A stretch of DNA of 64,000 nucleotides, from NCBI RefSeq assembly GCF_053078305.1, contig NZ_CP166879.1; one strand, 5' to 3'. Positions 53,990 to 54,431 of this stretch are shown here, in pieces. The position numbers were made by a program, and so were the translations under genes. The notes below the pieces were generated by a model, which was not told where the DNA came from, ran no database searches, and saw nothing but the letters and a program-made list of their open reading frames with translations. The first letter of the stretch is position 1, and every line of letters begins with the position of its first letter.

Positions 53990-54431
53990 AACCACACCGG
54001 ACGCAGCCGCCGCGCTCACTACACTGATGCACGCGCTGATTGATATTTCTGTTATTGCTGACAGGGCGCATAAGCACGCCACCAGTGAAACAGAATATGC
54101 CGGGGCTTTCGTTCCTCATTCGCTGGCGGTTATGCAACTTAGTGCTGATATGGCGCTGAATGAGGCCAAAGCTATCCTGATTTCTGATTGTGAAAATGGG
54201 GGGGGGGTTATGCGTGATGATCGTTTTAATGCCCTGAAACAGGAGTTTGATGGTGCGCCTGATGATGCAGGTGATGCGCTTTCGTCAATATCCGAACTGA
54301 TAAGAGTGGCCTTTTTCTTACTTGGCACGAAAGAATATAAATCAACTGGAATAGACGTACTGAATATTACTGCTGATTATGCGGAATATATGGCAGAAGT
54401 GGATTTAAGAAAGATAACGGACAGGGGGTAA
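53979..54431 (+). CDS. Hypothetical protein containing a G10 tract
   Basis: 150-aa ORF overlapping the previous stop; encodes ENGGGV at the homopolymer. Confidence 0.4.
   Translation: MCNKTTPDAAAALTTLMHALIDISVIADRAHKHATSETEYAGAFVPHSLAVMQLSADMALNEAKAILISDCENGGGVMRDDRFNALKQEFDGAPDDAGDALSSISELIRVAFFLLGTKEYKSTGIDVLNITADYAEYMAEVDLRKITDRG
54198..54207 (+). repeat. Homopolymeric G10 tract within a coding sequence
   Basis: Ten consecutive G at 54198-54207. Confidence 0.9.

Follow-up and report, generated by a model that had tools for sequence, protein, structure and literature searches.

A length-variable G tract at the probable boundary of two small genes in an Escherichia coli satellite

In Neisseria, Haemophilus, Campylobacter and Bordetella, contingency loci built on simple sequence repeats carry uninterrupted runs of 7-11 G within coding sequence. 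The length of these runs varies between and within lineages, probably by slippage, and with each change of length the reading frame downstream is shifted. Here we describe a tract that shares all of these properties in Escherichia coli, a species in which, to our knowledge, natural contingency loci of the homopolymeric-tract type are not established. It lies on contig NZ_CP166879.1 (NCBI RefSeq assembly GCF_053078305.1), in a stretch of 64,000 nt, hereafter the window, and within that stretch in a phage satellite. The tract, GGGGGGGGGG, is a run of ten consecutive G on the + strand at 54198-54207. It falls inside an open reading frame (ORF) of 150 aa, 53979-54431, where it codes for Gly-Gly-Gly and supplies the first base of a Val codon. 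A first-pass annotation of the same DNA had described the run, correctly, as ten G that encode three Gly inside this ORF; the in-frame ATG that it placed at 54209 is in fact at 54210-54212, two bases past the tract.

How does this locus compare with the closest known systems? It differs from the contingency loci in that, as far as the sequence allows us to judge, no frame would turn a gene off; what alternates is the fusion and the separation of two coding parts. It differs also in its neutral frame proportions, in the near uniformity of its clones and in its host, E. coli. Since the on/off property is lacking in the sequence, we do not class the tract as a contingency locus. A second likeness is to the translationally coupled gene pairs of phages, with their ATGA and ATGnnTGA overlaps. 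Alleles with G8 or G11 share exactly this design: the Shine-Dalgarno (SD) site lies in the last codons of the first gene, which stops at a TGA inside the ATGCGTGA of the second, and the operon repeats the ATGCGTGA(T) motif at its next junction. Here, however, the SD is a long, pure homopolymer, which would make for a mutationally unstable junction, and in the window coupling has given way to fusion. A third likeness is to the fusion and fission of interacting small proteins, in that two adjacent, co-transcribed small helical proteins are found separate or Gly-linked according to the strain. Whereas such systems record a single historical event, this one seems to toggle recurrently by means of one repeat tract, and any interaction between its halves is hypothetical, the AlphaFold2 (AF2) model being of low confidence (predicted local distance difference test, pLDDT, score 59).

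The account that we favour, and hold to be probable, is that of a polymorphic G repeat at the boundary of two genes in the early (immunity-replication) operon of the satellite, a repeat that is both Gly tail and SD, that changes length recurrently, that leaves both parts made in all states and that is close to neutral. The tract would encode the Gly-rich C-terminal tail of the first protein and would serve at the same time as the SD of the second gene, whose native start would be the ATG at 54210. Replication slippage is the most plausible cause of its changes in length. A tract of 3n+2 G would place the stop of the first gene at the TGA inside ATGCGTGA, in the manner of a classic stop-start overlap. 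A tract of 3n G would let the first gene run 28 nt into the second before it stops, and one of 3n+1 G, like the G10 of the window, would leave a single reading frame and a predicted fusion of 150 aa. The second gene would keep its own ribosome-binding site and start throughout, and the junction would form a flexible Gly linker between helical hairpins, so that all three states should deliver both protein parts and the polymorphism should be close to neutral.

If the length of the tract changes, what becomes of the two genes? We modelled the frame outcomes for tract lengths of 5-13 on the window sequence. With 5, 8 or 11 G the first gene ends at TGA 54215-54217, giving a stop-start overlap of 8 nt and a tail ...GGYA. 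With 6, 9 or 12 G it ends at TGA 54235-54237, with an overlap of 28 nt and a tail ...LCVMIVLMP, and with 7, 10 or 13 G the two genes fuse into one frame. An upstream stop that overlaps the downstream start is present in the G8 (8 nt) and G9 (28 nt) alleles. The G10 of the window has none; the stop is removed and the frames are fused. Thus the loss of one G predicts a product of 85 aa (C-terminus ...GGGLCVMIVLMP) and the gain of one G a product of 79 aa (C-terminus ...GGGGYA), the 73-aa C-terminal part being in both cases a separate ORF. The first-pass annotation had rightly expected a truncated protein or an uncoupled C-terminal half. Its warning that the annotation is fragile here was also well placed, for it is tract length alone that decides whether a homologue has been annotated with one gene or with two.

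In many homologues (L002, L003, L007, L009) the upstream gene stops at the TGA inside ATGCGTGA. Two successive small genes of the operon open with the same ATGCGTGAT after a G run (54208-54218 and 54432-54441). Paralogy of these 73-aa and 77-aa ORFs, which their shared ATGCGTGAT start might suggest, was rejected when BLASTP gave no alignment.

Is the second gene equipped to be translated in its own right? The 20 nt preceding ATG 54210 pair with the 3' end of 16S rRNA at -11.1 kcal/mol. The accepted starts of the same operon range from -10.7 to -12.1 kcal/mol, and the site lies beyond the 1st percentile of random 20-mers drawn from the window (-10.2 kcal/mol). The C-terminal half thus possesses its own ATG, preceded by an SD that lies inside the upstream gene. 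On the sequence, the G run is a strong SD-like site for the second gene, and we infer that the C-terminal half is probably translated independently from ATG 54210. Both halves should be translatable at every tract length, because the downstream half has a strong SD and a native ATG of its own.

Which arrangement is the older, two genes or one? A family search among 1.84 billion representative proteins found 50 representatives. Within this family the relatives at 38-55% identity are nearly all split. Their N-half proteins have 73-93 aa; their C-half proteins have 75-78 aa, and the first residue of these aligns to query residue 78, the Met of ATG 54210. Most relatives have the N-half as a protein on its own, about 75-90 aa long. 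Annotations of E. coli homologues often divide the stretch into two genes that overlap, the first of about 79-86 aa and the second of 73-77 aa. The exact 73-aa C-half protein is annotated separately elsewhere, including in a second copy in the source genome. PHROGs holds distinct families for the N-half, the C-half and the fusion (table 1), and the alignment to phrog_24341 begins at residue 78. Both halves are under purifying selection, the median pairwise ratio of non-synonymous to synonymous substitution rates (dN/dS) being 0.24 for the N-half and 0.29 for the C-half. Finally, the N-half stands beside an unrelated downstream gene in locus L016. Because of the distant split homologues, the alternative partners, the separate PHROGs families and the selection on both halves, we take two genes to be the older arrangement and ATG 54210 to be the native start of the second. 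By these sequence criteria the two-gene arrangement predates the fusion, and the G run sits at the junction. The description of the tract as lying inside a satellite gene was therefore half right: the satellite context is fair, given the gene content and the att repeats, while 'inside a gene' misleads where the older arrangement is of two.

The converse would be that the fused protein of about 150 aa is ancestral and that the two-gene forms are frameshifted pseudogenes. Fused forms are indeed common (the whole O157:H7 lineage is among them, and they have a PHROG family of their own), and the alleles of E. coli 042 (G10) and O157:H7 (G7) differ by an in-frame 3 nt. Even so we regard this descent as very unlikely. 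It is at odds with the split state of the relatives below about 55% identity, whose C-half starts at the internal Met, and with the occurrence of either half beside an unrelated partner (L016 for the one, the proteins P0024 and P0051 for the other). Moreover, the split forms have well-placed stops, their C-half retains a strong SD and ATG, and purifying selection acts on both halves across the split alleles.

The two proteins just named, P0024 (193 aa, from a Logan contig; ...QGGVNMRDDRF) and P0051 (167 aa; ...VSRERLRDDRF), combine the C-half with another, unrelated upstream module; this gene pair is therefore not the only place where G-rich junctions are read through. Alleles of the N-half and of the C-half have also been reshuffled between elements around a conserved junction, which suggests that the junction acts as a module boundary or a recombination linker. 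Both states, fused and split, are found with many pairings of N-half and C-half alleles. An island of conservation extends around the junction from about -45 to +40; since it was in part forced by the search pattern, we have not used it as evidence.

What the two proteins do is not disclosed by similarity. The ORF gave no match in profile searches with Pfam, NCBIfam, PADLOC and PDB (best E-values 0.64 and 0.81), none of its PHROGs matches has an assigned function, and a tblastn search with the fused ORF in 50,697 phage records, a collection presumed to include P4, found no match. The AF2 model, made from an alignment of 30 sequences (pLDDT 59; predicted template modelling score, pTM, 0.38), is too weak to support a comparison of folds; it shows two helical hairpins and, between residues 74 and 101, a low-confidence segment that holds the Gly run. 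A Gly-run linker between hairpins, as modelled here, is of the kind that would tolerate fusion.

To what extent does the tract vary in nature? An independent scan of IMG/VR, for which the pattern needed at least 5 leading G and exact flanks, returned 85 loci. Their tracts were G7 in 23, G8 in 34, GGGGGTGG in three, G9 in 18, G10 in four, G11 in two and G8TGG in one; about 95% of the sampled loci are thus uninterrupted. Among complete E. coli genomes G7, G8, GGGGGTGG, G9 and G10 are all present. G7 is found in O157:H7, O145:H28 and others as one fused gene of 154 aa, and G10 in E. coli 042 (a finished genome), RM11911, RM13745, RM13752 and TUM9757 as fused genes of 151-155 aa. Members of the protein clusters add G5 and G11 tails and interrupted variants. 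The homologues compared therefore carry tracts that are uninterrupted and variable, G6-G11, and not the interrupted tracts that would have spoken against the first-pass annotation.

The variation appears even where the flanks do not vary. More than one tract length occurs in 6 of 64 haplotypes that are identical over flanks of 250+250 nt. One family of alleles, with no more than 4 mismatches per 1.5 kb, includes G6 (O145 RM12367-C1), G7 (O157:H7), G8 (O55:H7 CB9615) and G10 (042), and the O26-type allele has G9 in at least 60 genomes (O26/O111) and G8 in one. On this sequence comparison, the tract changes recurrently and faster than its flanks. Large clones, on the other hand, are nearly uniform, O157:H7 with G7 and O26:H11 with G9. 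All O157:H7 records examined had G7, the lone deviant in the near-identical allele group being the O145 strain with G6. This near monomorphism argues for a modest rate, and a rough inference from tract changes set against flanking substitutions places the mutation rate of the tract at about 1e-7 to 1e-6 per generation, well below the classical rates of phase variation. The best full-length match in the ecoli_genomes collection has 92.7% identity. Two homologous loci have a neighbouring small gene flagged 'frameshifted': in L014 (E. coli 2013C_3277) it is the Icd-like gene, in L012 (TUM9812) the 77-aa gene. The whole operon is on this account prone to small indels or to sequencing errors.

Is one frame favoured over the others? 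The fused frame accounts for 20 of 70 distinct haplotype-by-tract combinations (0.29, against 1/3 expected, p=0.45) and for 27 of 85 loci in raw counts (p=0.82). The distribution of tract lengths has a single peak around 8. There is no sign in the 85 IMG/VR loci, in a test of little power, that any frame is favoured or avoided, and near-neutrality of the frame state is what we infer. This agrees with the idea that every state yields both protein parts. A phase-variable switch of the usual on/off kind, a switch being one of the two readings offered in the first-pass annotation, is not supported, given that both halves are translatable at all lengths, that the fused frame is at 20/70 against 1/3 and that large clones are almost uniform.

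Four points weigh against the account of a near-neutral repeat between two genes. Initiation at ATG 54210 is deduced solely from sequence and homology. The test of near-neutrality is weak, and the pattern by which its sample was ascertained demanded exact flanks and at least 5 leading G. Sequencing errors may account for some of the differences in length among near-identical public alleles. Lastly, about 95% of the tracts are uninterrupted despite free third positions in the Gly codons, which a purely neutral account does not predict and which could reflect selection for purity. Ascertainment bias and the conserved junction island could also account for this purity.

The same purity is one ground for regarding the tract as a classical contingency locus, kept long and pure by selection for rapid, reversible switching between fused and separate states, that is, for adaptive phase variation. 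The recurrent changes of length on near-identical flanks and the absence from the window of any other poly-G as long agree with such selection. We nevertheless think it unlikely. No state of the tract abolishes either coding part, the frame classes stand at neutral proportions, and the large clones are nearly monomorphic (G7 in O157:H7, G9 in at least 60 O26/O111 genomes). Moreover, mismatch repair is intact in E. coli, and the operon, headed as it is by an immunity region with a C4/CI-type RNA, is presumably, by analogy with P4, silent in the lysogen. It is quite unlikely, too, that the satellite bears a slipped-strand switch in E. coli by which toggling between fused and separate forms, or low-level slippage, alters its behaviour upon induction (replication control, exploitation of the helper or interference). 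If that were true, satellites of E. coli would possess a heritable, reversible bet-hedging device; such switches have so far been described mainly in Neisseria, Haemophilus and Campylobacter. A difference in function between the fused and split states would likewise make of the tract a slipped-strand switch in a mobile element of E. coli, but the evidence points to near-neutrality.

Might the ribosome or the polymerase, rather than mutation, join the two frames? Programmed recoding, by -1 frameshifting or by transcriptional slippage on a slippery G GGG GGG, would allow a G9 allele to make both the short protein and the fusion, and G10 would then hard-wire the product of the shift. A formal X XXY YYZ heptamer, G GGG GGG, is present, and in the model of sequence and frame a -1 shift on G9 would give exactly the protein that G10 encodes. 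However, there is no stable structure downstream (z-scores -0.42 for 54208-54270, -0.96 for 54208-54300 and -0.22 for 54170-54260), and interrupted tracts such as GGGGGTGG occur. Among the homologues all three frame relations are common, and G8, the most frequent length, could give the fusion only by a +1 shift, so that no one recoding event is conserved. We consider recoding most improbable.

There remains the question of whether the strain in the window truly has ten G. The draft assembly GCA_000736735.1 (JPQG01), which PMC5323612 names as E. coli 48, has one G fewer in the tract (G9) and otherwise matches window 49209-59431 exactly; to window 17136-38383 it is gaplessly identical. In 31,471 compared bases the one G in the tract is the sole difference. 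In the paper that cites JPQG00000000 (PMC5323612), PacBio sequencing is described for five strains, of which strain 48 is not one. The draft contains a second copy of the satellite (L006, JPQG01000004.1), 99.6% identical over 8 kb and also G9. Homology between this copy and the window sets in at 49727, some 250 nt before the left att repeat, so that the second copy may also sit in a related portal gene. Among some 15 billion proteins the exact 150-aa fusion occurs on one contig only, a 5.94-Mb E. coli chromosome that also bears a separately annotated copy of the 73-aa protein.

Since an independent draft of the same strain differs by this G alone, the window's G10 is either an error of the consensus or a very recent +1 slippage from G9. 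The two are about equally likely, with a slight lean towards error. We accordingly give an even chance to an assembly artefact, in which the strain truly has G9, with two genes (85 and 73 aa), and the 150-aa fusion does not exist in this genome. In favour of an artefact are the G9 of an otherwise identical draft over those 31,471 bases, the G9 of both satellite copies in that draft, the single contig on which the fusion is found when the second copy in the source genome is annotated with a separate 73-aa protein, the fact that the tract is the longest homopolymer of the window, and its position in a two-copy repeat of 99.6% identity. In long-read assemblies the errors that remain are for the most part errors of homopolymer length, and repeats are where polishing removes them least easily (10.1101/2021.10.14.464465). 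Against an artefact, other genomes have G10 as a genuine natural allele, E. coli 042, a finished genome, among them; the draft could be the assembly at fault, and its contig sizes point to long reads; and a systematic bias should strike both copies, yet only one is fused in the source genome. The locus thus shares with known long-read homopolymer errors a one-base difference at the longest homopolymer, in a repeated element, between two assemblies of one strain. It differs from them in that the same tract varies among many independent genomes, finished ones included. A sequencing error, the other reading in the first-pass annotation, is plausible for this strain, whose two assemblies differ over 31.5 kb by this G alone. 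An artefact would concern the base call in this genome only and is compatible with a near-neutral repeat at the boundary of two genes.

How unusual is such a tract? It is the longest homopolymer in the window and the only run of G or C of at least 8 in its 64 kb, the runner-up being a single G7; runs of at least 10 G are expected, if bases are independent and identically distributed, at 0.045 per window. The mechanism, a repeat prone to slippage, is ordinary. Its consequence is a gene pair prone to inconsistent annotation (as one gene or two, with three tails) across thousands of E. coli genomes, which inflates pan-genome counts and splits protein families; PHROGs already has three. The site is useful as a sentinel for the homopolymer accuracy of assemblies. 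It is also a natural E. coli poly-G with repeated change (G6-G11), of a kind rare in the species, and could serve for the measurement of slippage rates.

Table 1. The G tract, the two genes that it joins and the surrounding features of the satellite, in window coordinates.
Feature	Position	Strand	Evidence and remarks
Whole satellite, ~11.6 kb	49980-61608	+	21-nt perfect direct repeat GTGTATTGCAATGTGTATTGC at 49980-50000 and 61588-61608; gene content
isrK (53558-53634) and C4/P4-CI-type antisense RNA (53656-53743)	53558-53743	+	66 and 77.6 bits, both above gathering scores
Icd-like gene	53798-53989	+	NF033153, 3.6e-16; stop overlaps N-half start by 11 nt
N-half gene body, 73 codons, MCNKTTPD...SDCEN	53979-54197	+	Separate N-half homologues; phrog_5146; dN/dS 0.24
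Fused 150-aa ORF as read with G10	53979-54431	+	Fused G7/G10 homologues exist; phrog_2512
G10 homopolymer	54198-54207	+	Gly-Gly-Gly codons and SD-like sequence for ATG 54210; length-polymorphic mononucleotide repeat
C-half gene, 73 aa, MRDDRFNALK...TDRG, stop TAA 54429-54431	54210-54431	+	Separate annotation elsewhere; distant homologues; phrog_24341; dN/dS 0.29
Out-of-frame TGA inside ATGCGTGA	54215-54217	+	N-half stop for 5/8/11 G; L002, L003 annotated with 8-nt overlap
Out-of-frame TGA	54235-54237	+	N-half stop for 6/9/12 G; 28-nt overlap, tail LCVMIVL[I/M]P; L001, L004, L005, L006 annotated so
Next gene junction GGGGG-TAA-T-ATG	54424-54435	+	G-run SD, then ATGCGTGAT, start of 77-aa gene 54433-54666; -10.7 kcal/mol
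DUF4222 gene (54672-54971) and RepA/AAA_25 helicase gene (54968-56377)	54672-56377	+	Downstream genes of the operon

What kind of element carries the tract? The isrK and C4/P4-CI-type RNAs form an immunity region that heads the operon, and a longer ORF, 53492-53989, which shares its end with the Icd-like gene, matches the Ash family. The element also encodes an integrase, AlpA, a Bro-N protein, the 77-aa ORF, SSB and PerC, and the operon is tightly packed, with gene overlaps or gaps of 1-5 nt. It resembles P4-like satellites and the phage-inducible chromosomal islands (PICIs) of Gram-negative bacteria in its integrase, AlpA, C4/CI-type RNA and isrK, Icd/Ash, DUF4222, replicase, att repeats and length. 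It differs from P4, within the ORFs scanned, in having a RepA/AAA_25 helicase in place of the alpha primase and lambda E-, D- and Nu1-like genes in place of sid, delta and psu. None of these P4 hallmarks (alpha primase-helicase, sid, delta, psu) was found among the ORFs scanned, a scan that was not exhaustive for the smaller ORFs. In the literature searched there was no description of such a tract in P4-like satellites or PICIs, nor of a satellite inserted in a portal gene.

The right arm of the satellite carries a lambda E-like major capsid gene (57967-59022), a D-like decoration gene (59034-59369) and a Nu1-like small terminase gene (59990-60544); the ORFs scanned there matched Phage_cap_E, HDPD and Phage_Nu1, and two had no match. 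A P4-type immunity region together with lambda-like capsid genes of its own is an unusual combination of modules. Just 3' of the RepA-like helicase gene, at 56374-56566, AAAAAGTGGGC recurs in three to four copies, one about every 84 nt; the repeats resemble iterons and mark a candidate origin of satellite replication. Two identical 22-nt sequences, GCCGGAGAAATCCGGCTTTTTT, each a hairpin followed by a T run, look like intrinsic terminators; one follows PerC (57528-57549) and the other the capsid and decoration block (59802-59823).

The satellite is inserted in the lambda-family portal gene of a resident lambdoid prophage; the gene continues at 49021-49899 on its left and at 61629-62459 on its right. 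Positions 2-241 of the portal family PF05136 are found left of the insert and positions 235-354 right of it. The gpA terminase gene (46896-48818) precedes the insertion and an S49 protease gene (62308-63759) follows it. Being inserted within the portal gene, the satellite disrupts an essential head gene of what is likely a helper-type phage.

No tRNA genes were found anywhere in the window. Its first part, 1-28400, is ordinary E. coli chromosome, with ypdABC-type two-component genes, frc/oxc, evgAS, emrKY, dsdA and a 72-aa remnant of a GntP permease. This part also contains a csc-type sucrose locus (LacI-type regulator, invertase, PfkB kinase and LacY-type symporter), directly after which the lambdoid prophage begins.

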